A stretch of DNA of 13,657 bases from Thermoproteota archaeon. GTDB taxonomy: Archaea; Thermoproteota; EX4484-205; JAAOZP01. Position 1 is the stretch's first letter. The number at the start of each line of letters is the position of its first letter. Shown here in pieces: positions 3,861-13,366 of this stretch. Under the pieces are notes generated by a model, which did not search any database, was not told the origin of the DNA, and worked only from the letters and a program-made list of their open reading frames with translations. A program made the position numbers and the translations under genes. Where the stretch lies: contig JBNAVT010000035.1 of assembly GCA_049700215.1 (NCBI GenBank), forward strand, positions 1,552 through 15,208, given 5' to 3'.

Positions 3861-4931
3861 TTAAAAACTCAGGATCTTCTCCCAGTCAACGTTCTCATGA
3901 ACCAGCTTCCTGGCCGCGGCGATGCGCGTCTTGTCCCCCGGCCTTATTCTACCAACTATTTTCTGAATCATCTGCAGGGTGGTGTAAGTATCCTGGGGCA
4001 CTACGATCATGGGGATCTTAAGCTCATCCGCCCTAGGCAGTACTTTAACGCTTGGGCGCAGGTTTCCAGTCAGGATTATGCCGGAGGCTCCTGCTTCAAG
4101 CGCCGCCAGCACTATGTCCGTCCTATCGCCCCCGGTTATTATAAGCTCGTTCCTAACTCTTCTAAAATACTGTATGGCGCTTTCAGGAGTCATAGCGCCT
4201 ATTAAAACGGTTTCAACAGGGTTCTCAAGCCCTCTTTTCCCGGCGATGAGCTCGCCGCCTATGGACTCGTAAACCTCTCTTACCGTGAGGGAGCTGAGCA
4301 CCCTGTCCTCAGGCATGATCCCCAGGGTTTTCAAGCCTTCTTTCTCAAGCATTGGTTTCACGGTTTCTCTCGCAATCTTAAACCTGTTTTCCTCAACACG
4401 GTTTAGAACGACGCCTGACACCTTGACCCCCCAGTGTTCACAGTAGTCCCTCGCGTGAAGAGCCTCGTCGACGACGAAGTCGCCCTCGCATCTCAACACT
4501 ATGATGAGCTCAGCGTTGAAAAGCTTGGCGAGCCGCGGAGCCTGGCAGCCTAGGAAGGAGCCTGTTGAAAGCGTTTGAGCCCCCTCGATCAGCATCAGAT
4601 CCTTTTCAGCAGAAGCGTCCTTGTAAGACTCTAGGATGCTGTCTCTGAGACGCGAAGCGTCTTTGCTCAGGAAGTAGTCGAGGAAGCTTCCCCCGCATAT
4701 TTTGAACGGGCATAATTCTAGGCTTGTCTTCAGCCCGAGGATTTCCCTCATGGTTTCAGCATCCTCGTCCACAAGCTCGCCCCTAGGGTTCGGCACGCAG
4801 AACCCGCTGATAGGTTTGAAATAGCCTACTCGCAGCCCCTTCTCCAACGCCAGCTGCGCCAGCGAGATTATCAGCGTGCTCTTCCCCGCCAGCCTGCTCG
4901 GCGAAGCCACGTATAATGCTTGCCTCCTCAT
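3861..4931 (-). CDS. BioD-like (AAA_26) plus DRTGG domain protein, resembling the Pta N-terminus but with no Pta catalytic domain
   Basis: P-loop-like AGKST, GYFKP, LIEGA, GVVLNRV and LIITGGDRTDI. 356 aa, with an ATGA overlap with the upstream ACD. Confidence 0.9.
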   Translation of the reverse strand: MRRQALYVASPSRLAGKSTLIISLAQLALEKGLRVGYFKPISGFCVPNPRGELVDEDAETMREILGLKTSLELCPFKICGGSFLDYFLSKDASRLRDSILESYKDASAEKDLMLIEGAQTLSTGSFLGCQAPRLAKLFNAELIIVLRCEGDFVVDEALHARDYCEHWGVKVSGVVLNRVEENRFKIARETVKPMLEKEGLKTLGIMPEDRVLSSLTVREVYESIGGELIAGKRGLENPVETVLIGAMTPESAIQYFRRVRNELIITGGDRTDIVLAALEAGASGIILTGNLRPSVKVLPRADELKIPMIVVPQDTYTTLQMIQKIVGRIRPGDKTRIAAARKLVHENVDWEKILSF

Positions 4932-7048
4932 GTCTCAGCCTCACCCTTAGGCTTGGAAAGCGTTCCTCTTATATCTACTGCCATACACCCCTTCCCCTCC
5001 TCGTAGGCGAACAGGGGGTTTATTTCCATTTCCACCAGTTTCTTGAAGCGGCACATTAACTGGGAAAGCCTCACAACCACGTTTAAAACCGACTCCAGGT
5101 CCGCCGGAGGCTCGCCCCTAACGCCCTTGAGCAGGGTGTAAGCCTTAGTCTCGGAAACCATCTCCGTAGCCTCGGTGAAAGTAAGCGGCGCCAGCCTGTA
5201 TGAAACATCCCTCAGGAAGTTTACGTATATTCCTCCTAGGCCGAACATCACCAGGGGGCCGAACTGCGGGTCTCTGACAGAGCCCACTATAACCTCCCTG
5301 CCGGGCGGCGCCATTTTCTGGATGAGCGCGCCCAGGATTCTCGCCTGCGGCATTGCTGCCCTAGCCCTTCTCGTCACCAGCTCGTAAGCCCCGCCCGCCT
5401 CCTCAGGCGTTTTAACGTTAAGGATTACGCAGCCCATATCCGTCTTGTGCAGAATATCTGGGGAGACTATTTTCACCGCAACCGGGCAGCCTATGGATTC
5501 AGCTATTTCACGGGCCTCCGCAGCGTCCCTAGCTATCCTGGCCTCTGGAACAGGAATCCTGTATGCTGAAGCTATTTCGAAAGCCTCTTCTGAGGAGAGG
5601 TTGATTCTTCCCTCAGCCTCAACCCTTGCTATCACCCTCGCCACAGCATCGTCATCCACGTCAGCCAGGTTTACAGCATGCTCCTCAGGCTTGCTGAGCA
5701 TCAGGCTGTAGTCGTACATTCCCTTAAGCGCGAAGGCCGCGGGCTCCGGGAAATCGTAGTTGGGAATCTTCCCCTCTCTCAGGATCCTTATCGGTTGAGA
5801 CTCGTTGTCGAACCCCATGAAGACCGCTGCAACAGGCTTCTCAAACCTTCTCCCCGTCTCCACAACGACGCGCGCAACCTCCTCGGAGGGGGTCATAGCC
5901 TGCGGCGTCAGTATGACGATCACGCTGTGCACGTTGCCGCTGCTTAAAGCAGCCTCAAGCGCAATCCTGTAGCGCTTCTCGTCAGCGTCCCCAAGCACGT
6001 CCAGAGGATTGTTGACGCTAGCATGAGGCGGAAGCAGGCTGCTAAGCCTCTCCCTGAGATCCTGCTCCAGCAGGGGCAGGTCTAAACCCATTTTCTCGCA
6101 AGCGTCTACGGCAAGTATCCCGGGCCCGCCGCCGTTCGTAACCACCATGACGCCGCTCCCCCTTGGCAGAGGCTGGTCCTCGAAAGCTGAAAGAAGGTCG
6201 AAAAACTCTTTCATCGTGCCCGCCCTCAGGACACCAGCCTTCCTGAAGGCTGCTGAGAAAGCAGTGTCAGACCCTGCCAGCGAACCCGTGTGGGAGGAGA
6301 CTGCCCTGACACCAACCTCGGTGGTGCCGGCTTTCAAAGCAACCACCGGCTTTCTTCTCGACAGCCTCCGGGCAACGTCTATAAAACGCTCCCCGTTCTT
6401 CACGCCTTCAACATAGACCCCGACGACCCTAGTGTTCTCCTCTTCGATCAGAGCCTCGAGAAAATCGGCGGTAGTCAGGTCAGCCTCGTTGCCGACGCTT
6501 ATGAAGTTCGCGAGCCCCATTCCGCTGAGCCTCGACCAGTTTATTATCGCGCTTCCAAGAGCCCCGCTTTGAGAAACGATCGACACGCTTCCCGGCGTCG
6601 GCATGGTTGAGGCGAAGGAAACGTTCATACTGTTTCTAGAGCTTATGAAGCCGAGGCAGTTCGGGCCCTGCATCCTCATGCCGTACTCCCTGCATTTAGC
6701 GACAAGCTCTTTTTCAAGAAGCATCCCCTCCCTGCCTGTTTCACTGAAGCCCGCGGATATCACGATGAGGCCTTTCACGCCTTTCCTCCCACACTCCTCG
6801 GCGACGCTTGGAACAATCCTGGCGGGGACAGCGATAACAGCAAGGTCAACATCGTCTTCAACATCCTTAACGCTCCCGTAGCACCTGTAGCCAAGTATTT
6901 CTTGAGCGTTAGGGTTCACCGGGTAGAGCCTCCCCTTGAAGCCTGATTCAACCATGTTACGGAATATTCTGTGGCCTACTTTCCCCTCCTCCCTGCTGGC
7001 GCCTATTACCGCCACCGTTTTCGGGTTAAAGAAAGCCTCCAGCCTCAT
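4928..7048 (-). CDS. ADP-forming acetate/acyl-CoA ligase (ACD), fused alpha-beta
   Basis: CoA-binding N-terminus (AVIGAS, YPVNP, ISAGFSE, GPNCLG), SQSGA, phospho-His motif SSHTGSLAG, TNGGGPG, NNPLD, and an ATP-grasp beta domain with KIVSPDILHKTD, DPQFGP and EINP. Confidence 0.95.
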   Translation of the reverse strand: MRLEAFFNPKTVAVIGASREEGKVGHRIFRNMVESGFKGRLYPVNPNAQEILGYRCYGSVKDVEDDVDLAVIAVPARIVPSVAEECGRKGVKGLIVISAGFSETGREGMLLEKELVAKCREYGMRMQGPNCLGFISSRNSMNVSFASTMPTPGSVSIVSQSGALGSAIINWSRLSGMGLANFISVGNEADLTTADFLEALIEEENTRVVGVYVEGVKNGERFIDVARRLSRRKPVVALKAGTTEVGVRAVSSHTGSLAGSDTAFSAAFRKAGVLRAGTMKEFFDLLSAFEDQPLPRGSGVMVVTNGGGPGILAVDACEKMGLDLPLLEQDLRERLSSLLPPHASVNNPLDVLGDADEKRYRIALEAALSSGNVHSVIVILTPQAMTPSEEVARVVVETGRRFEKPVAAVFMGFDNESQPIRILREGKIPNYDFPEPAAFALKGMYDYSLMLSKPEEHAVNLADVDDDAVARVIARVEAEGRINLSSEEAFEIASAYRIPVPEARIARDAAEAREIAESIGCPVAVKIVSPDILHKTDMGCVILNVKTPEEAGGAYELVTRRARAAMPQARILGALIQKMAPPGREVIVGSVRDPQFGPLVMFGLGGIYVNFLRDVSYRLAPLTFTEATEMVSETKAYTLLKGVRGEPPADLESVLNVVVRLSQLMCRFKKLVEMEINPLFAYEEGKGCMAVDIRGTLSKPKGEAET

Positions 7049-7092
7049 TGCGAATCATCGATGCAGACTGCCCCTACTCGCCTGCAACTATG

Positions 7093-7100
7093 TTTATAAA
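7093..7100. promoter_or_regulatory. Palindromic TATA box TTTATAAA in the short divergent intergenic region
   Basis: 24 nt before ATG 7125 (+) and 44 nt before ATG 7048 (-). Confidence 0.6.
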
Positions 7101-7124
7101 CTTGCAGCCTTGAGAATGCTCCGG

Positions 7125-9026
7125 ATGGCCAGCAGGGAGCGTTTGCGAGACAGGTCTTACGACGAGAAGAAGACCAGCCTGGAGGAGGCTTTAAGCCACA
7201 TAAGGACTGGAGACCATATTTTCATAGGCTCAGCCTGCGGGGAGCCCCAGTACCTTGTGCATGGGCTGGTTGAGAAGGCTAAGCACCTGGCGGACAACGA
7301 GATACTGCATGTTCACACTCTCGGCGTCGCGCCATACGCTAAGCCGGTCTACTCGGACAGGTTCCGCCTTAACGCTTTCTTCGTAGGCGTGAACACTAGG
7401 GAGGCTGTTGCAGAGGGGAGGGCGGACTACACGCCTGTTTTCCTCTCCGACCTGCCTAAGCTGATATCAAGGGGAATGGTGCCGATAGACGTGGCGCTAA
7501 TACAGGTTACGCCGCCTGATGAACATGGTTTCTGCAGCCTAGGCGTCTCTGTGGAGATAACTAAGACCGCTGCGGAGAAGGCTAGGCTCGTGATAGCTCA
7601 GGTGAACCGTTTCATGCCGCGCGTCCTAGGGGACAGCTTCATACATGTTAACGATATCGACGTGGTTGTTGAGCACGACGAGCCGATTCTTGAGGCGCCG
7701 CAGCCGCCGAGAGACGTTGTTTCAGACAGGATAGCGAGATATGTTTCCGAGCTGGTTGAGGACGAGTCGACTCTTCAGATAGGGATAGGAAGCATTCCTG
7801 ACGCGGTGCTCAGCTCCCTTGAGGGTAAGAAGGACCTCGGCGTCCACACGGAGCTTCTCACGGAGAGCGTTGTAGACCTTGTTGAAGCAGGGGTCATAAC
7901 CTGCGCTAAGAAGACTCTCCACAGGGGGAAGATAATAGCCTCCTTCGCCATGGGGACGAGGCGCCTCTACGACTTCATAGACGACAACCCGATGGTTGAG
8001 TTCTACGAGTCGGACTACGTTAACAACCCGCTTGTAATCGCTCAGAACAGGAAGATGGTTGCTATAAACCAGGCTCTGGAAGTAGACTTGACGGGGCAGG
8101 TTTGCGCCGACTCGCTTGGATACGTTTTCTACAGCGGCCTCGGTGGCCAGGCTGACTTCGTAAGGGGCGCTAGGCTCTCGGAGGGAGGCAGGGCCATAAC
8201 CGTCATACCCTCCACGGCTAAAGAGGGCGCGATCTCCAGGATAAAATCGGTGCTCAGCGAGGGTGCTGGCGTAGTGCTGACCAGGGGCGACGTGGACTAT
8301 GTTGTGACCGAGTATGGTGTTGCACACTTAACGGGGAAGACGATAAAGGAGAGGGCGCTGGCGCTCATGGGCGTCGCGCACCCGAAGTTCAGGAACCAGC
8401 TTCTCGAATGGGCTAAGGCCCATAAGTATGTGCCTGAGGAGGTGCTCCCATTCCCGGAGGTAGAGTACCCTGAGGAGTTGAAGCGCTACGTTACCCTGGA
8501 GGACGGCACCAGGCTGCTCATAAGGCCGATAAAGCCTTCAGACGCGACGATGAAGCAACACTTGTTCTACGCTCTCTCTAAGGATAGTGTGACTAAAAGA
8601 TACTTGGGGCCTTTGAAGTCTCTCCCCTGGGACAGGGTTTGGCCGTACGTGATAGTAGACTACCAGAACGAGATGGTTCTAGTAGCGGTGGTGAGCCAAG
8701 ACGGGTTTGAAAGCATGGTTGGAATAGGCAGCTACTCCAGAATACCGGGGACGGAGCTTGCTGAAGTGGCGCTCGTCGTTAGGGACGACTGGCAGGGGAA
8801 GGGGATTGGGACGGGGCTTCTCAAATACCTTATTGAGCTCGCTAGGGCAAGGGGCTTCACGGGTTTAAAAGCATGGGTGCTTGTTGAAAACACTAAGATG
8901 ATGCATCTCTTCAGGAAGTGCGGCTACACTATGAGGTACCGGGTGGAGGACGGTGTTTATGAGGTGCTGATAGACCTTAGGCAACCTGTTGAAACCCGGG
9001 AGGCAGCTGCTTCCGAAAGCCTGTGA
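7125..9026 (+). CDS. Acetyl-CoA hydrolase/transferase (4-hydroxybutyrate CoA-transferase-like) fused to a C-terminal GNAT acetyltransferase
   Basis: GRADYTP, PDEHGFCSLGVS, LQIGIGSIP, catalytic GVHTE and YSGLGGQADF. The C-terminal GNAT has IRPIKPSD, AEVALVVRDDWQGKGIG and VLVENTKM. Likely start is ATG 7125 (or 7116); the track start at 6936 overlaps acd. Confidence 0.92.
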   Translation: MASRERLRDRSYDEKKTSLEEALSHIRTGDHIFIGSACGEPQYLVHGLVEKAKHLADNEILHVHTLGVAPYAKPVYSDRFRLNAFFVGVNTREAVAEGRADYTPVFLSDLPKLISRGMVPIDVALIQVTPPDEHGFCSLGVSVEITKTAAEKARLVIAQVNRFMPRVLGDSFIHVNDIDVVVEHDEPILEAPQPPRDVVSDRIARYVSELVEDESTLQIGIGSIPDAVLSSLEGKKDLGVHTELLTESVVDLVEAGVITCAKKTLHRGKIIASFAMGTRRLYDFIDDNPMVEFYESDYVNNPLVIAQNRKMVAINQALEVDLTGQVCADSLGYVFYSGLGGQADFVRGARLSEGGRAITVIPSTAKEGAISRIKSVLSEGAGVVLTRGDVDYVVTEYGVAHLTGKTIKERALALMGVAHPKFRNQLLEWAKAHKYVPEEVLPFPEVEYPEELKRYVTLEDGTRLLIRPIKPSDATMKQHLFYALSKDSVTKRYLGPLKSLPWDRVWPYVIVDYQNEMVLVAVVSQDGFESMVGIGSYSRIPGTELAEVALVVRDDWQGKGIGTGLLKYLIELARARGFTGLKAWVLVENTKMMHLFRKCGYTMRYRVEDGVYEVLIDLRQPVETREAAASESL

Positions 9027-9053: not shown

Positions 9054-9453
9054 TTAAGGCTTGCTCAAGTTTATCCTTCTGATTCCCCCGGGAGGAGCCT
9101 TCCATCTCCTGCCGTAAGTCGTGAAACCTTTTACCTCGCCCTCCACGCCGTAGAGCCGAGTTTAGCGGAAACCGTGGACACCTAGAGCGCGAGAAACGGC
9201 TCAAGGTTTCGGCTAGCGCGCTAAAACCGTTAAGCCCCAGCTTCCTCACCGCTTCAACATCCCTCTTCGCCGATCAGACGGGCCGTTAGAGCCCGTCGGG
9301 GTAATAACCCTGTCAAGCACAAGCCTCAGGTAGTAAGGCTTACCTTTGAGCCGCGTGCTTTCAGCCGCTTATAAGGCTTCGCTCATCCTGCGCGGGTTGG
9401 AGAAAACCATCCTTATGCTTCACGGTTGTAAACTCGACTGCTTCAACCAACAT
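9054..9453 (-). pseudogene. Possible degraded gene remnant of unknown family
   Basis: ATG at 9453 followed by protein-like fragments in shifting frames (MLVEAVEFTTV / IRMVFSNPRRMSEAL*AAESTRLKGKPYYLRLVLDRVITP / RDVEAVRKLGLNGFSALAETL). No intact ORF spans them. Confidence 0.25.
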
Positions 9454-9486
9454 ATTTACAGCTCCATAATTGTCTCAACCGAATTG

Positions 9487-9516
9487 TTTATTAGCTGGGG
9501 AAAGCAGTTTCCCAGC
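9487..9516 (+). promoter_or_regulatory. TATA-like TTTATTA followed by the palindrome GCTGGGGAAA-gcag-TTTCCCAGC (candidate operator)
   Basis: The dyad at 9494-9516 lies between the TATA-like box and ATG 9526. Confidence 0.45.
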
Positions 9517-9525
9517 GTTGCAAAA

Positions 9526-10389
9526 ATGGGTAAGCCAATTATCATCGACACCGATATAGGCGACGATATAGATGATGCTTTCGCCCTGTTGTTTGCGCTG
9601 AAGTGCAGCGAGCTGGAGCTGGAGGCGGTTACAGTAGTCTGGGGCGATGTGGAGACGAGGGCTAAGCTAGCCTCCAAGCTTATATCAACACTAGGCTTGA
9701 AAAAACCCGTAGCCTCAGGCTCTTCTCAAAGCCTGCTTGGGTTTAAACCGGGATGGAAGCCTTGTCAGGCAGGGGTTTTGAAGCAGGGGGAGGCTTTTTC
9801 AAACATTCTGGAGACGCCGGCTTGGAACATTATTTCCATGAAAGCCTGTGAAATTGAAAATCTTAACCTTGTCAGCATCGGCCCGATGACGAACTTGGCT
9901 TTAGCACTGCTTTTTGAACCAGGCTTCAGCAAGAGGGTTAGCCTCACCTCCATGGCCGGGGTGTTCAAGGGCTCTGGCGCAGAGTACAATGTTAAATGCG
10001 ACCCTGAGGCTTTGAGCCTAGTGCTAAAGTCAGGGTTGAACCCGGTTCTAGTTGGGCTTGACGTCACGATGAAATGCGTAATGCCGGTGAGCATGGTTGA
10101 GAAGCTAAAAACCAGTGGGAAGCCGGAGCACCGGCTGGTTTCAGCGATGCTTGACGCCTGGACAGGGAGCACCGGCTTCAGGCAGCCGGTTTTACACGAC
10201 CCATTGGCGTTAGCCACGCTGGTGGACAACAGGATTGTGACGGTTGAGAAAACAAGGGTTGAGGTTGAGCTTAAAGGGGAATACACGCGGGGCTTCACTG
10301 TTCTAACCGGCGGCGCTCCGAACGCTTCCGTATGCTTGAGCGTTGACGTCGAAAGGTTTCTGAAGCTTTTCGAGGAAGTGGTTTTCTAG
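9526..10389 (+). CDS. Nucleoside hydrolase (IU-NH/RihA superfamily), atypical subgroup
   Basis: N-terminal Asp-rich Ca-binding motif IIIDTDIGDDIDD, IGPMTNLA, AEYNVKCDPEA, VGLDVT and LHDPLA. Likely start is ATG 9526 (287 aa). Confidence 0.9.
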   Translation: MGKPIIIDTDIGDDIDDAFALLFALKCSELELEAVTVVWGDVETRAKLASKLISTLGLKKPVASGSSQSLLGFKPGWKPCQAGVLKQGEAFSNILETPAWNIISMKACEIENLNLVSIGPMTNLALALLFEPGFSKRVSLTSMAGVFKGSGAEYNVKCDPEALSLVLKSGLNPVLVGLDVTMKCVMPVSMVEKLKTSGKPEHRLVSAMLDAWTGSTGFRQPVLHDPLALATLVDNRIVTVEKTRVEVELKGEYTRGFTVLTGGAPNASVCLSVDVERFLKLFEEVVF

Positions 10390-10427
10390 AAAAAGCAAAG
10401 CGTTTCTCAAAGGTTTTCACCTAGCCG

Positions 10428-10442
10428 GGAAACCTTTAAAAA
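10428..10442 (+). promoter_or_regulatory. BRE/TATA promoter GGAAACC-TTTAAAAA
   Basis: Ends 21 nt upstream of ATG 10464, consistent with a leaderless transcript. Confidence 0.6.
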
Positions 10443-10463
10443 GAAAGCGTCGCCACCATTCTC

Positions 10464-11516
10464 ATGGACGGGTTGAGGTTTTTAAACGGGCCGCTTTCAA
10501 ACCTGCCTAGAATAGTCCGCGCGAAAACCATGAGAGTATCCTCGTTCGACAAGACGGGTGGGAACAAGGATTACTGGACTATCGGTTCCCGCGAGAGGGT
10601 TAATATCGCTGAAATCAAGGGTGCTGGAATAATTAGACACGTATGGTTCACGGTTAGCTCCTTAAACAAGTTCTGCCTGAGGGACGCTGTGTTGAGAATA
10701 TACTGGGATGGCGAGCAGGATCCGAGTGTTGAAACACCTCTCGGAGACTTCTTCGGAGTTGGGCACGGTGTTGCAAACCACTTCGTGTCACTACCCTTAA
10801 GCATGGTTAGAGGACCCGGGAGAGGAGTTAACGCTGGCATGAACAGCTATTTCCCGATGCCTTTCTCAAACGGGGCTAGGATAGAGGTTGAGAACGAGAA
10901 GGATGACGAGATAATCCTCTACTTCCACGTGGACTACGAGCAGTTTGACGAAATACCTGAAGACTACGGGAGGTTCCACTGCTGGTGGAACAGGGAGAAC
11001 CCGTGCACCCCGGTGGAGCACAGGGGAGAAGAGTTGAACACTACTGGCGACGACAACTATCTGATACTTTACGCTGAGGGGACTGGCCACTACGTTGGCT
11101 GCGTGCTCAGCGTGGATAATTTCAACGCTTTCAACCAGAAGTACACATGGTTCGGAGAGGGTGACGACATGATTTTCGTCGACGGTGAGAAGTGGCCACC
11201 CAGCATCCACGGCACCGGGACCGAGGACTACTTCCTAGCGGCATGGGGCTTTCCCTGCGGAGAATACTCGGGGCCGTACCACGGCGTCTCACTGGCTGGA
11301 GACACTGTAGAGTGGTCTGGAAAATGGAGCGTCTACAGGTTTCACATAGAGGACCCGGTGAGGTTCACGAGGTCGATCAGGGTGACTATTGAGCACGGGC
11401 ATGCTAACGACCAGGGTAACGATTACTCGAGCGTAGCATACTGGTATCAGGCTGAGCCCCATAGGAAGTTCCCACCTCTTCCGAAAGCATTAGACAGGAG
11501 GCCTAGAAGAGCATAG
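10464..11516 (+). CDS. DUF2961 / glycoside hydrolase family 172 protein
   Basis: SSFDKTGGNKD, GAGIIRHVWFT, YWDGE..PSVETPLGDFFG, NSYFPMPF, GHYVG, WFGEGDD, GTGTEDYF, YRFHIEDP and EHGHAN...SSVAYWYQ. No signal peptide visible. Confidence 0.9.
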   Translation: MDGLRFLNGPLSNLPRIVRAKTMRVSSFDKTGGNKDYWTIGSRERVNIAEIKGAGIIRHVWFTVSSLNKFCLRDAVLRIYWDGEQDPSVETPLGDFFGVGHGVANHFVSLPLSMVRGPGRGVNAGMNSYFPMPFSNGARIEVENEKDDEIILYFHVDYEQFDEIPEDYGRFHCWWNRENPCTPVEHRGEELNTTGDDNYLILYAEGTGHYVGCVLSVDNFNAFNQKYTWFGEGDDMIFVDGEKWPPSIHGTGTEDYFLAAWGFPCGEYSGPYHGVSLAGDTVEWSGKWSVYRFHIEDPVRFTRSIRVTIEHGHANDQGNDYSSVAYWYQAEPHRKFPPLPKALDRRPRRA

Positions 11517-11609
11517 TGGAAACTTGTAAAAAGGTTGAGCGACACGGCTGTTTCCGGAGCCGCGGCTTCCAGCTGAAGAGCAGGCCTCGAAGATTTTAAA
11601 CCATAAAAT

Positions 11610-11685
11610 CGGGCCCGCTGGGATTTGAACCCAGGTTCTCCGGCTCCGGAGGCCGACGCCTTCATCCTGGCTTGGCCACGGGCCC
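11610..11685 (-). tRNA. tRNA-Arg(CCG), intronless, CCA not encoded
   Basis: Acceptor stem GGGCCCG/CGGGCCC plus G discriminator; D arm GCC..GGC; anticodon arm TCGGC-CT CCG GA-GCCGG; T arm CTGGG-TTCAAAT-CCCAG; T-rich 3' trailer. Confidence 0.96.
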
Positions 11686-11708
11686 TGTTAAAAACTTATT
11701 TGCGTATG

Positions 11709-11716
11709 CTTTTAAA
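11709..11716. promoter_or_regulatory. TATA element CTTTTAAA between the divergent tRNA-Arg and lysyl-tRNA synthetase genes
   Basis: ~23 nt from the tRNA 5' end (-) and 21 nt from ATG 11738 (+). Confidence 0.55.
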
Positions 11717-11737
11717 CCTAATTCGCTTCGAGCAGCC

Positions 11738-13366
11738 ATGGAAGCCAGAGGCAGAAGCGGGTTCGTGTTCTGGGCCGACGCTGTGGCAGAGTCAGCCTTT
11801 GAACACGCTAGGAGAAACGGTATGAGCGTTGTGACTGTTAAGAGCGGCGGCTCCCCGTCCGGGGGGAAGCACATCGGCAACATGAACGACCAGATCCGCG
11901 CCTTCTTCATATACGATGCTTTAACCAGGAAGGATGTTCGCGCGAGGCTAATCTATACTAATGACGACATGGATCCTCTCAGGACTATTCCGCCGTCTGC
12001 TCCAGACGGGGATGGGGAGTGGCATGTTTTCACGGAGCAGGAGCTCGCGACGCTTGAGAAACACTTAGGCTGGCCTTACAGCCGCATACCTGACGTCTTT
12101 GGGTGCCATGGGTCGTGGGGGGAGCATTTCAACTCGGTGATTCAAGAAGGCTTAAGCAGAATAGGAATAGTGATGGAGAACTATGATAACAGCGAGTCTT
12201 ACGCTAGCGGAAGGTTTCTCGAGGCCACTAGGCTGACCCTTTCCAAGACGGCTCTAGTCCGGGAGGTTTTAAGCAGGTTTCAGACGAGTGTTGAGAGAAA
12301 CTGGATACCGTTCCACCCTGTCTGCGGCAACTGCGGGAAGATAACGACCACTGCTCTAAGCGTTGACCTGGGCAGCGACACGGTTGAATACGAGTGTAAG
12401 GGCAGGGTTCTAGCCGGCAAGTACGTGATAAAGGGCTGCGGCCACAGGGGTGTTTCAACGCTGAAAGAGGGTAAGCTGCCCTGGCGTCTGGAATGGGTTG
12501 CCCAGTGGAGGGTTTTCCAGGTTAACGCGGAGCCGTTTGGAAAGGATCACTACGAGGGCTCGTGGAAATCCGGCCAAGCGTTGGCGAGAGAAGTCTACGG
12601 TATAGAGCCGCCAGCAAGCCTAGTCTACGAGTTCTTCCTGGTCAACGGTGAGAAAATGTCGAGTAGAAGGGGGAACGCGTATATTCTCCACGACCTTCTG
12701 AAAGTGCTTGAGCCTGAGGTGATAAAGTACCTCTACACTAAGAGGCCGATGATGCAGAGGAATATTGACTTGAAGAACCTGCACCTTCTTGTCGAGGAGT
12801 TCGACAGGTTTGAGGAGAGCTTTTTCAAAGGGTCTTCCGAGGAGGCTGCGAGAATATACCCGGCTCTGGTTGGAACCATCCCGGCTAGGAAGCCGTTGAG
12901 AGTAAGCTATCTTCTCGCAAGCTACGTCGTCCAGTTCTACCCGGTTGAGGAGGCTTACAGGAGCCTGGTTAGGGCGGGCGTCGTCAAGGAGGAGGCTTGC
13001 GGAGAAGACAGGGAGAGGGTTCTCAGGAGGCTTATGCTCGCTAGAAACTGGCTCAACATGTTCGCGGACACGAGTAAGTACGTTGTCAGGAAGGAGCCTG
13101 CTGAAGTTGGTTTAAACGGCTTCAGACAGGCTTTCGAAGAGCTCCTGGAGGAACTGTCGTCGCTGAAAGAGTTCAGGGGGGAGGAAATACAGAACATTAT
13201 TTACTCCACTGCCCGTAGACACGGAATCCCGCCTCCCAGCTTCTTCGAAAAGCTGTACATGGTTTTCACGGGAAGCGGGAGCGGCCCTAGGCTTGGCTAC
13301 CTGCTTGCAGCCCTGGGCAGGGAGCACGTGGTAACCCGTCTGAAGACGCTTCTCCAAAAGCCTTAA
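11738..13366 (+). CDS. lysS: Class I lysyl-tRNA synthetase
   Basis: FWAD N-terminus, HIGH-like SPSGGKHIGN, DDMDPLR, CGNCGK, KLPWRLEW, EPFGKDH, KMSKS-like KMSSRRGN and C-terminal GPRLG. Start is placed at ATG 11738 because the track start lies inside the tRNA. Confidence 0.97.
   Translation: MEARGRSGFVFWADAVAESAFEHARRNGMSVVTVKSGGSPSGGKHIGNMNDQIRAFFIYDALTRKDVRARLIYTNDDMDPLRTIPPSAPDGDGEWHVFTEQELATLEKHLGWPYSRIPDVFGCHGSWGEHFNSVIQEGLSRIGIVMENYDNSESYASGRFLEATRLTLSKTALVREVLSRFQTSVERNWIPFHPVCGNCGKITTTALSVDLGSDTVEYECKGRVLAGKYVIKGCGHRGVSTLKEGKLPWRLEWVAQWRVFQVNAEPFGKDHYEGSWKSGQALAREVYGIEPPASLVYEFFLVNGEKMSSRRGNAYILHDLLKVLEPEVIKYLYTKRPMMQRNIDLKNLHLLVEEFDRFEESFFKGSSEEAARIYPALVGTIPARKPLRVSYLLASYVVQFYPVEEAYRSLVRAGVVKEEACGEDRERVLRRLMLARNWLNMFADTSKYVVRKEPAEVGLNGFRQAFEELLEELSSLKEFRGEEIQNIIYSTARRHGIPPPSFFEKLYMVFTGSGSGPRLGYLLAALGREHVVTRLKTLLQKP

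Follow-up and report, generated by a model that had tools for sequence, protein, structure and literature searches.

The DNA analysed here (the window; 13,657 nt, G000:C35:1552-15208) comes from a Thermoproteota archaeon genome of 2.09 Mb that is 94.6% complete, and whose closest named relatives are metagenome-assembled genomes (MAGs) labelled Brockarchaeota, Thermoproteota and similar. Its plus strand encodes a CoA-transferase fused to a C-terminal GCN5-related N-acetyltransferase (GNAT) domain, hereafter the fusion. The gene is divergent, across 76 nt, from a minus-strand operon encoding, in order, an ADP-forming acyl/acetyl-CoA synthetase (ACD), a protein with AAA_26 and DRTGG domains (the DRTGG protein), a 4Fe-4S protein and an aldehyde:ferredoxin oxidoreductase, as defined by an open reading frame (ORF) map and Pfam (Table 1). 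The stop codon of the ACD gene and the start codon of the DRTGG gene share an ATGA overlap (4928-4931), and only 6 nt separate the DRTGG gene from the 4Fe-4S gene. The spacer contains a palindromic TATA-like box, TTTATAAA, at 7093-7100, which recurs at the equal position in the spacers of loci L001, L002, L004 and L006 and may be a shared archaeal promoter of the ACD and fusion genes. The elements from which an original prediction of an acylation module had been assembled, namely the catalytic glutamate near 7851, the C-terminal GNAT, the 76-nt spacer, the His motifs of the ACD and the coupling of the DRTGG gene, were all recovered by the ORF map, Pfam and motif analyses.

The N-terminal region of the fusion is a family I CoA-transferase. 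Both Pfam halves exceed their cut-offs, with AcetylCoA_hydro (PF02550) matching residues 10-188 (E 4.9e-38; 131.6 bits, cut-off 24) and AcetylCoA_hyd_C (PF13336) residues 277-428 (E 3.4e-65; 219.1 bits, cut-off 23.7). Solved 4-hydroxybutyrate (4HB) CoA-transferases are matched at E values from 1e-138 to 1e-85 (best 9vag, E 1.1e-138; also 3eh7, 2oas and 3gk7). In Foldseek searches the transferase part of an AlphaFold2 model of the fusion (pLDDT 83.9, pTM 0.79) matched 2oas (TMt 0.91) and 3gk7 (TMt 0.87), and RipA E249 mutant entries were among the structure matches. The motifs GVHTE (residues 239-243; Glu243, codon 7851-7853) and GLGGQADF (residues 338-345; nt 8136-8159) align with the same motifs of the solved 4HB-CoA-transferases; we take the HTE/HSE glutamate and the GGQxDF loop to be the catalytic motifs of family I CoA-transferases. 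The domain, which keeps these residues as originally predicted, thus seems catalytically competent. The window protein included, the glutamate is retained in 28 of 30 fused proteins and the strict pattern GxGG[QA]xDF in 25 of 30. Among the more distant archaeal relatives (L003, L006-L010, L012-L016) identity is 77-87% in the transferase domain, compared with 56-73% in the GNAT. The fusion shares its fold, HTE glutamate and GGQxDF loop with the AbfT/Cat2/RipA group of CoA-transferases, from which it differs in its C-terminal GNAT, in its position on a separate tree branch and in falling below the cut-off of the NCBIfam equivalog TIGR03948 (287.6 bits against 674.8). The two proteins that depart from the glutamate motif, L028 and L030, are both from Bacillota and carry HTD in its place and GGHTSF in place of GGQxDF, while retaining the GNAT. 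No ACD was found near either gene and no acetyl-CoA synthetase of the AMP-forming type (Acs) in the genome of L028; these may be fusions whose transferase is dead and whose role is regulation alone.

The C-terminal domain is, by alignment and predicted fold, a GNAT of the type found in Pat protein lysine acetyltransferases, in agreement with the original prediction. Pfam assigns Acetyltransf_1 to residues 500-601 (E 7.6e-15) and Acetyltransf_3 to residues 463-602, and the C-terminal 190 residues align with residues 709-884 of E. coli PatZ (9it0; E 1.5e-22), as well as with the GNATs of S. lividans PatA (4nxy/4u5y) and M. tuberculosis Pat (4ava). Glu547 (codon 8763-8765) lies opposite PatZ E809, while QGKGIG (residues 557-562; nt 8793-8810) lies opposite the PatZ P-loop and has the Q/RxxGxG/A pattern of an acyl-CoA loop. 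According to the available text of PMC12184503, E809 is the key catalytic residue of PatZ, and E123 is its equivalent in S. lividans PatA. In an alignment of 17 fused GNATs the catalytic position is Glu in 15 and Asp in two, and the Q, G and G of the loop are invariant. The GNAT part of the model gave Foldseek matches to 4u5y (TMt 0.93, root-mean-square deviation 1.7 Å), in which the S. lividans Pat GNAT is bound to the C-terminal domain of Acs, and to 4nxy (TMt 0.87), and the segment preceding the GNAT is held in common with PatZ residues 709-740. Weak secondary matches were to ArsN1/phosphinothricin-type and RimI-type GNATs. The fusion holds the sole Pat-type GNAT found in the genome of the window.

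The fusion belongs to a large family. A relatives search over 5.8 billion proteins, in which 8000 candidates were scored, listed 120 relatives of 603-639 aa and 73-97% identity, and all 120 carry PF02550, PF13336 and PF00583. A DNA survey taking one genome per species retained 80 loci, of which 34 encode a fused and 46 an unfused CoA-transferase. The archaeal hosts of the fused forms are Thermoproteota/Bathyarchaeia, Hadarchaeota and Thorarchaeota; at ~50% identity the fused forms extend to Planctomycetota, Verrucomicrobiota, a deltaproteobacterium, SAR324, Chloroflexota, Bacillota, Elusimicrobiota and a proteobacterium. A transferase-domain tree of 78 rows places every one of the 32 fused rows on the same side of a branch (SH-aLRT 97), pointing to a single origin of the fusion; a FastTree of the GNAT domain (167 rows), in which 70 of 164 forks are unresolved and many 'short' rows may be fragments, does not resolve the fused GNATs as one clade or place their sister group. 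A search with the GNAT domain over 1.84 billion cluster representatives (50% identity) returned 4766 hits at E≤1e-10. Among the best 150 of these, 55 are at least 343 aa long, comprising 32 with a CoA-transferase, 19 with an ACD-like domain (type I/II Pat or pieces), one each with a GAF and a receiver domain (P0160 and P0196, respectively) and two with no other domain. This GNAT subfamily is therefore combined mainly with either an ACD-like domain or this CoA-transferase. Two variants of the fusion are longer: P0210 (960 aa) has a Fer4_8 domain ahead of the CoA-transferase and GNAT, and P0182 (967 aa) an unassigned N-terminal extension of ~340 aa. In two Bathyarchaeia genomes the gene matches as two pieces, one match containing a single TAG (G059:C1:104612-106472) and the other consisting of two overlapping tblastn segments (L138:421-1738); these may reflect a frameshift, an assembly error or a pseudogene.

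The ACD adjoining the fusion appears to be an active enzyme. It contains the Pfam domains CoA_binding_2, Succ_CoA_lig, Ligase_CoA_2 and ATP-grasp_5 and, with both of its His motifs, conforms to a five-subdomain NDP-forming acyl-CoA synthetase; it scores 573.3 bits against NCBIfam TIGR02717 (cut-off 567.15). Its best match in the PDB is 8wzu, an ADP-forming 4-hydroxybutyrate-CoA ligase (E 4e-162), and its NCBIfam relative is likewise of this kind. The phospho-His motifs are SHTG (His253, codon 6290-6292) and HKTD (His534, codon 5447-5449). Both histidines are invariant in an alignment of 19 linked ACDs, and SHTG and HK[TS] are retained in all 20 linked ACDs examined. The prediction that the ACD is free and keeps both motifs is thus upheld, while in PatZ the SHTG loop shows as a four-residue gap in the alignment. 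The ACD is the single ATP-grasp_5 match in the genome of the window. In an ACD tree the archaeal ACDs linked to the fusion, together with those linked to a DRTGG gene only, form one clade of 20 (SH-aLRT 96), and the Pat regulatory domains form a separate clade. This tree, which is quick, unrooted and has long Pat branches, rules out the free ACD as the closest kin of the Pat regulatory domain. The suggestion that the parts of Pat have been rearranged at this locus therefore stands as an analogy but not as a statement of descent. Two genomes of a sister family encode ~900-aa proteins with the ACD-like plus GNAT architecture of Pat (L082:4993-7710, minus strand; L083:4085-6751, plus strand). Unlike E. 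coli PatZ these keep SHTG and HKTD and may combine an active ACD with a GNAT; of nine other Pat-type representatives only P0270 keeps both His motifs.

The association of the fusion with the ACD was assessed by tblastn with the window proteins over the 80 surveyed loci, with a reach of ~8 kb. Of the 28 fused loci that could be assessed, 22 have a neighbouring ACD, archaeal and bacterial loci among them, compared with none of the 46 loci of unfused CoA-transferases. All 14 assessable Thermoproteota/Hadarchaeota fused loci have the ACD and DRTGG genes divergent from the fusion as in the window; in bacteria the ACD lies immediately upstream on the same strand in 8 of 13, and in the one Thorarchaeota locus it is not adjacent. 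Sampling 81 Thermoproteota genomes evenly gave 11 fusions, every one of which adjoins an ACD gene followed by a DRTGG gene. Chance is excluded as the origin of this arrangement since it is conserved across other genomes, and the original prediction, for which linkage elsewhere was a decisive test, is borne out in this respect. As unfused transferases never adjoin an ACD in this survey, the link to the ACD follows the GNAT and not the transferase. Just downstream of the unfused transferase in ten loci (L034, L039, L040, L044-L046, L049, L051, L054 and L055, most of them named Acidobacteriota) there is a weak tblastn match (27-29% identity) to the 2-oxoacid:ferredoxin oxidoreductase (POR) of L071.

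The DRTGG protein is by contrast a partner of the ACD irrespective of the fusion. It consists of AAA_26 (residues 4-213) and DRTGG (residues 219-324) domains in Pfam, ends after the latter, and covers only profile positions 3-368 of 708 in PRK05632, the NCBIfam profile of Pta. It is thus not a Pta, because it has no PTA_PTB domain; the genome encodes a separate short Pta. The possibility that it is the N-terminal half of a split class II Pta is unlikely, as a different contig carries the short Pta and coupling to an ACD is near-universal for the DRTGG gene. Its best solved relative is AF_1212 (2ioj; E 4.6e-26), a DRTGG-only protein, which, to judge from the locus tags, presumably neighbours the characterized ACD AF1211. 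A DRTGG protein of ~360 aa occurs in 22 of the 81 sampled Thermoproteota genomes. The gene lies directly downstream of a fused alpha-beta ACD in 20 of these and 4.8 kb away in one, and in the remaining genome no ACD was found; the fusion is absent from 11 of the 22. In an alignment-based scan that returned 80 DRTGG loci, several of which share contigs with the fusion survey and are not independent counts, upstream DNA is available for 76 loci, and in 72 of these an ACD comes immediately before the DRTGG gene, mostly without a fusion. These loci are found in archaea (Bathyarchaeia, Hadarchaeota, Desulfurococcales, Methanomicrobia, Methanomassiliicoccales and an Asgard genome) and bacteria (Peptococcaceae/Pelotomaculum, other Bacillota, Chloroflexota and Acidiferrales). 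The pairing of ACD and DRTGG genes is therefore older and wider than the linkage to the fusion, and because it mostly occurs without a fusion the DRTGG protein is the ACD's own partner and is not present as a substrate of the GNAT, contrary to what had been predicted. Residues 16-17 of the BioD-like half (window 4881-4886) are an invariant Gly-Lys followed by Ser/Thr in eight of eight sequences, which suggests a P-loop and nucleotide binding, and in an Asgard MAG two tandem DRTGG paralogues follow the ACD (L180:2950-5059).

The distribution of Acs points to a different target for the GNAT. The genome of the window encodes one ACD, one DRTGG protein, one short Pta, one histone deacetylase-type (HDAC) protein and one AMP-forming Acs; no sirtuin was found in it. 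Its Acs carries PKTRSGKIMRR at its end. The lysine of such a PX4GK motif is the target of Pat acetylation, Lys609 of Acs being a known substrate (available text of PMC12184503). Among the sampled genomes that encode a DRTGG protein, Acs (ACAS_N-type) is present in 11 of 11 with the fusion versus 1 of 11 without, and that single fusion-less genome is the one in which no ACD was detected. In the genus of the window Acs occurs in all 14 genomes, of which 11 have both the ACD and the fusion and the other three have neither. In a class-level sample 13 genomes have a Pat-type GNAT, whatever its architecture; all of these encode Acs, and none of the four genomes with an ACD and without Acs has such a GNAT. 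Acs was also found in 9 of 10 diverse fusion-bearing genomes. Within the sampled Thermoproteota and genus genomes the fusion is thus seen only where ACD and Acs coexist, which is what a guard against futile cycling between the two enzymes predicts.

Some neighbourhoods bring Acs, or a deacetylase, next to the module. In L157 the genes for Acs (LPKTRSGKIMRR), ACD, DRTGG protein and fusion follow one another on one strand; in L024 the order is ACD, fusion, HDAC, with MFS and Acs genes on the opposite strand; in L020 Acs is divergent from the fusion; and in L071 the order is HDAC, CBS, ACD, fusion and POR (Pfam). Acs therefore adjoins the module in three loci and a deacetylase in two, the latter being the kind of neighbour for which the original prediction had recommended a search. 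The CBS and HDAC proteins of L071 and L024 received no AcuB or AcuC name from NCBIfam.

The explanation that we favour, although with slightly less than even confidence, is that the fusion represents an undescribed class of Pat-like lysine acetyltransferases, companions of the ACD, that guard the acetate/acetyl-CoA node and use a CoA-transferase as their regulatory domain. Such an enzyme would probably keep acetate formation and acetate re-uptake from running together. When acetyl-CoA or other acyl-CoAs are plentiful the ACD would make acetate and ATP, and the transferase domain of the divergently co-expressed fusion would bind acyl-CoA or turn it over. The GNAT is more likely to target Acs than the ACD or the DRTGG protein; modification of Acs would mean that acetate is not re-activated at the cost of ATP during excretion, an acetate switch or futile-cycle guard, and an HDAC-type deacetylase would reverse the mark. 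What the analysis shows are the identities of the domains, their catalytic motifs, the conservation of the gene linkage and the dependence of the fusion's distribution on ACD and Acs together; that Acs is the substrate, which way control runs and that the transferase domain acts as a sensor are inferences. Overall, the linkage, the Pat-type GNAT and the active-looking parts of the original prediction hold, while its choice of the ACD or DRTGG protein as target is now less likely than Acs.

Several observations weigh against a guard that acts on Acs. The co-occurrence rests on few lineages (families f1, f18 and f21 versus f11, f16, f22 and f25), whose members are non-independent, and Acs is common in any case, being present in 58 of the 81 sampled genomes and 7 of 14 control genomes. 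The fusion-bearing genome G096 yielded no Acs, and one deletion of neighbouring genes could account for the joint loss of ACD and fusion within the genus. In three Bathyarchaeia genomes (G052, G059 and G080) a Pat-like protein of ~895 aa coexists with the fusion and could be the Acs acetyltransferase there. Tight adjacency is mostly with the ACD and not with Acs, no ACD lies within ~8 kb in five bacterial fused loci (L019, L022, L028, L030 and L068), and the sole HDAC of the window's genome is on another contig, beside an aldehyde dehydrogenase and an M20 peptidase. Finally, conservation is higher in the transferase domain than in the GNAT, and the former looks active, so a metabolic partnership of transferase and ACD may coexist with regulation or outweigh it.

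The adjacency just described speaks for the original proposal, in which the GNAT acylates the neighbouring ACD or DRTGG protein and so tunes substrate-level ATP formation, with the transferase making or sensing the acyl donor. It is the ACD that adjoins the fusion in most fused loci and in every case in the phylum sample, and within the genus the two are present or absent together. The histidine motifs are intact in every linked ACD examined, and in L082 and L083 a GNAT of the same kind is joined directly to an ACD that keeps both. An adjacent gene, however, need not encode the substrate, and the ACD-DRTGG pair is widespread without any GNAT. This proposal also leaves unexplained why all ten of the ACD-DRTGG genomes that lack Acs also lack the fusion. 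No observation marks the ACD in particular as acyl acceptor, since co-occurrence and neighbourhoods point at least equally to Acs, and we know of no case in which an ACD is regulated by lysine acetylation, although no specific search for one was made. We regard an ACD or DRTGG target as unlikely.

A metabolic role for the transferase, also improbable as the main explanation, would have it shuttle CoA between acetate and butyrate, 4-hydroxybutyrate, propionate or succinate, so that a single ACD harvests ATP from, or activates, many acyl-CoAs; the GNAT would then regulate the transferase itself or bind acyl-CoA. The cycle of acetate:succinate CoA-transferase (ASCT) and succinyl-CoA synthetase (SCS), in which a transferase works together with a synthetase, offers an analogy. 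Consistent with such coupling are the retention of the catalytic glutamate in nearly all, and of the strict loop pattern in most, fused proteins, the higher conservation of the transferase domain, and the nature of the best relatives, which are real 4HB-CoA-transferases for the fusion and an ADP-forming 4-hydroxybutyrate-CoA ligase for the ACD. The POR gene after the L071 fusion, the weak POR matches after unfused transferases and the aldehyde:ferredoxin oxidoreductase in the window's operon also fit. If CoA shuttling were the basis of the association, however, the complete lack of ACDs beside unfused transferases would be unexpected, as would the retention of the catalytic Glu and P-loop by the GNAT, and the two Bacillota proteins with HTD and the degenerate GGHTSF motif still keep their GNAT. 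Coupling of this kind is in any case compatible with an acetyltransferase that guards Acs and does not exclude it.

In a more elaborate scheme, which we consider decidedly unlikely, the locus would be a Pat in pieces, with the active ACD and the DRTGG protein docking on the fusion and acting in trans as the cis regulatory domain of PatZ does, so that flux through the ATP-forming step gates the acetyltransferase. The live transferase would convert whichever short-chain acyl-CoA is abundant and feed it to the GNAT, by which Acs and other enzymes would be marked with acetyl, propionyl, butyryl or 4-hydroxybutyryl groups. If true, this would constitute a direct enzymatic read-out of the acyl-CoA pool common to archaea and bacteria. 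Although the weak ArsN1/phosphinothricin-type and RimI-type matches, and the position of the genome's HDAC beside the M20 peptidase and aldehyde dehydrogenase, a setting also suited to the deacetylation of small molecules, would fit N-acylation of a small molecule (amino acid, polyamine or antibiotic-like) or of protein N-termini with the transferase supplying an unusual acyl-CoA, this is very improbable, as the top sequence and fold matches are all Pat-group protein lysine acetyltransferases, pre-GNAT segment included, and no conserved biosynthetic or resistance context surrounds the fusion.

An acetyltransferase guarding Acs would have clear parallels, and clear differences, in characterized systems. 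With the type I and II Pats (S. enterica Pat, E. coli PatZ/YfiQ and S. lividans PatA) the fusion shares its GNAT subfamily, catalytic Glu, P-loop and pre-GNAT segment, as well as a large domain in cis that binds acyl-CoA (a prediction in the case of the fusion), and Pat acts at the acetate/acetyl-CoA node, as proposed here. The cis domains, however, are different: that of the fusion is a family I CoA-transferase with intact catalytic residues, while that of PatZ is ACD-like and has no phospho-His loop. The ACD beside the fusion is a separate, apparently active enzyme, and because of this and its CoA-transferase the fusion is neither a type I nor a type II Pat. The available text of PMC12184503 distinguishes five GNAT types, in which the regulatory domain is ACD-like, cAMP-, ACT- or NADP-binding, or absent; a CoA-transferase regulatory domain has no place among them.

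In B. subtilis the acuABC genes lie beside acsA and encode the AcuA GNAT, the CBS-ACT adaptor AcuB and the HDAC AcuC, which together inactivate Acs reversibly (available text of PMC13039410). As at the fusion loci, an acetyltransferase gene set lies beside, or divergent from, an enzyme of acetate/acetyl-CoA metabolism, and the Acs inactivation that we propose would follow the same logic. L071, with its HDAC, CBS, ACD and fusion genes, recalls this arrangement, and in L024 the fusion is followed by an HDAC; the window locus, by contrast, has neither a CBS nor an HDAC gene. AcuA also differs from the fusion in being a single-domain GNAT of another subfamily, and the enzyme beside acuABC is the AMP-forming AcsA rather than an ACD.

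The DRTGG protein has the AAA_26 (BioD-like) plus DRTGG architecture of the N-terminal domain of class II Pta. In E. coli this Pta domain has a regulatory role, and the DRTGG protein may have a similar one. D. vulgaris DVU3031 is a stand-alone DRTGG protein without PTA_PTB, encoded beside pta-ack and noted without a function in the available text of PMC4481167. Both proteins adjoin an enzyme that makes acetate and ATP from acetyl-CoA, pta-ack in the case of DVU3031 and the ACD, to which it is translationally coupled, in that of the window protein.

A full-text literature search found no paper on a CoA-transferase–GNAT fusion and no characterized archaeal example, in agreement with the original prediction. 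The main text of the Brockarchaeota genome paper discusses ACD and ACS and contains no mention of 'CoA transferase' or 'acetyltransferase', although its supplements may list the gene. If our explanation is correct, the fusion would add to the ACD-like, cAMP, ACT and NADP sensors a widespread acetyltransferase class whose sensor is a seemingly working CoA-transferase, spanning Brockarchaeota-like Thermoproteota, Bathyarchaeia, Hadarchaeota, Thorarchaeota and at least seven bacterial phyla. It would provide a handle on how uncultured fermentative archaea keep acetate and ATP formation by the ACD from short-circuiting with Acs, and on the role of stand-alone DRTGG proteins that resemble the N-terminus of Pta and are near-obligate partners of the ACD.

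Table 1. Features of the window, in window positions.
Feature	Position	Strand	Basis
CoA-transferase–GNAT fusion gene, 633 aa; likely start ATG 7125, alternative ATG 7117	7125..9026	+	ORF, Pfam
CoA-transferase domain, 4-hydroxybutyrate / butyryl-CoA:acetate CoA-transferase subfamily	7125..8420	+	Pfam, PDB matches, Foldseek, motifs
Pat-type GNAT domain (by alignment and predicted fold)	8463..8990	+	alignment to PatZ, SlPatA, MtPat; Foldseek
Divergent spacer, 76 nt	7049..7124	.	sequence
Fused alpha-beta ADP-forming acyl/acetyl-CoA synthetase (ACD) gene	7048->4928	-	Pfam, TIGR02717, PDB match
AAA_26+DRTGG protein gene, 356 aa	4931->3861	-	Pfam, PRK05632 partial match
4Fe-4S protein gene	3854->3252	-	Pfam
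Aldehyde:ferredoxin oxidoreductase gene	3255->1378	-	Pfam
Nucleoside hydrolase, DUF2961 protein and class I lysyl-tRNA synthetase genes, downstream of fusion	9346-13366		Pfam

The last two genes of the operon are not part of the core module. The aldehyde:ferredoxin oxidoreductase and 4Fe-4S genes are present in L004/L115 and L118 and missing from L001 and L002; as the fusion genes of the latter two are ~95% identical to that of the window, the pair is a variable accessory. Together with a transferase of the butyryl-CoA:acetate type, it might bear on the butanol/butyrate route of Brockarchaeota that is left unresolved in the available text of PMC8065059. In a Hadarchaeales MAG (L013:5143-11014, minus strand) the fusion lies beside the genes for topoisomerase VI A and B, each of which contains a LAGLIDADG intein. 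Downstream of the fusion, the order nucleoside hydrolase, DUF2961 protein and class I lysyl-tRNA synthetase is kept in the closest relatives of the window (L001, L002 and L004), across which the insert between the fusion and the nucleoside hydrolase gene varies in length.

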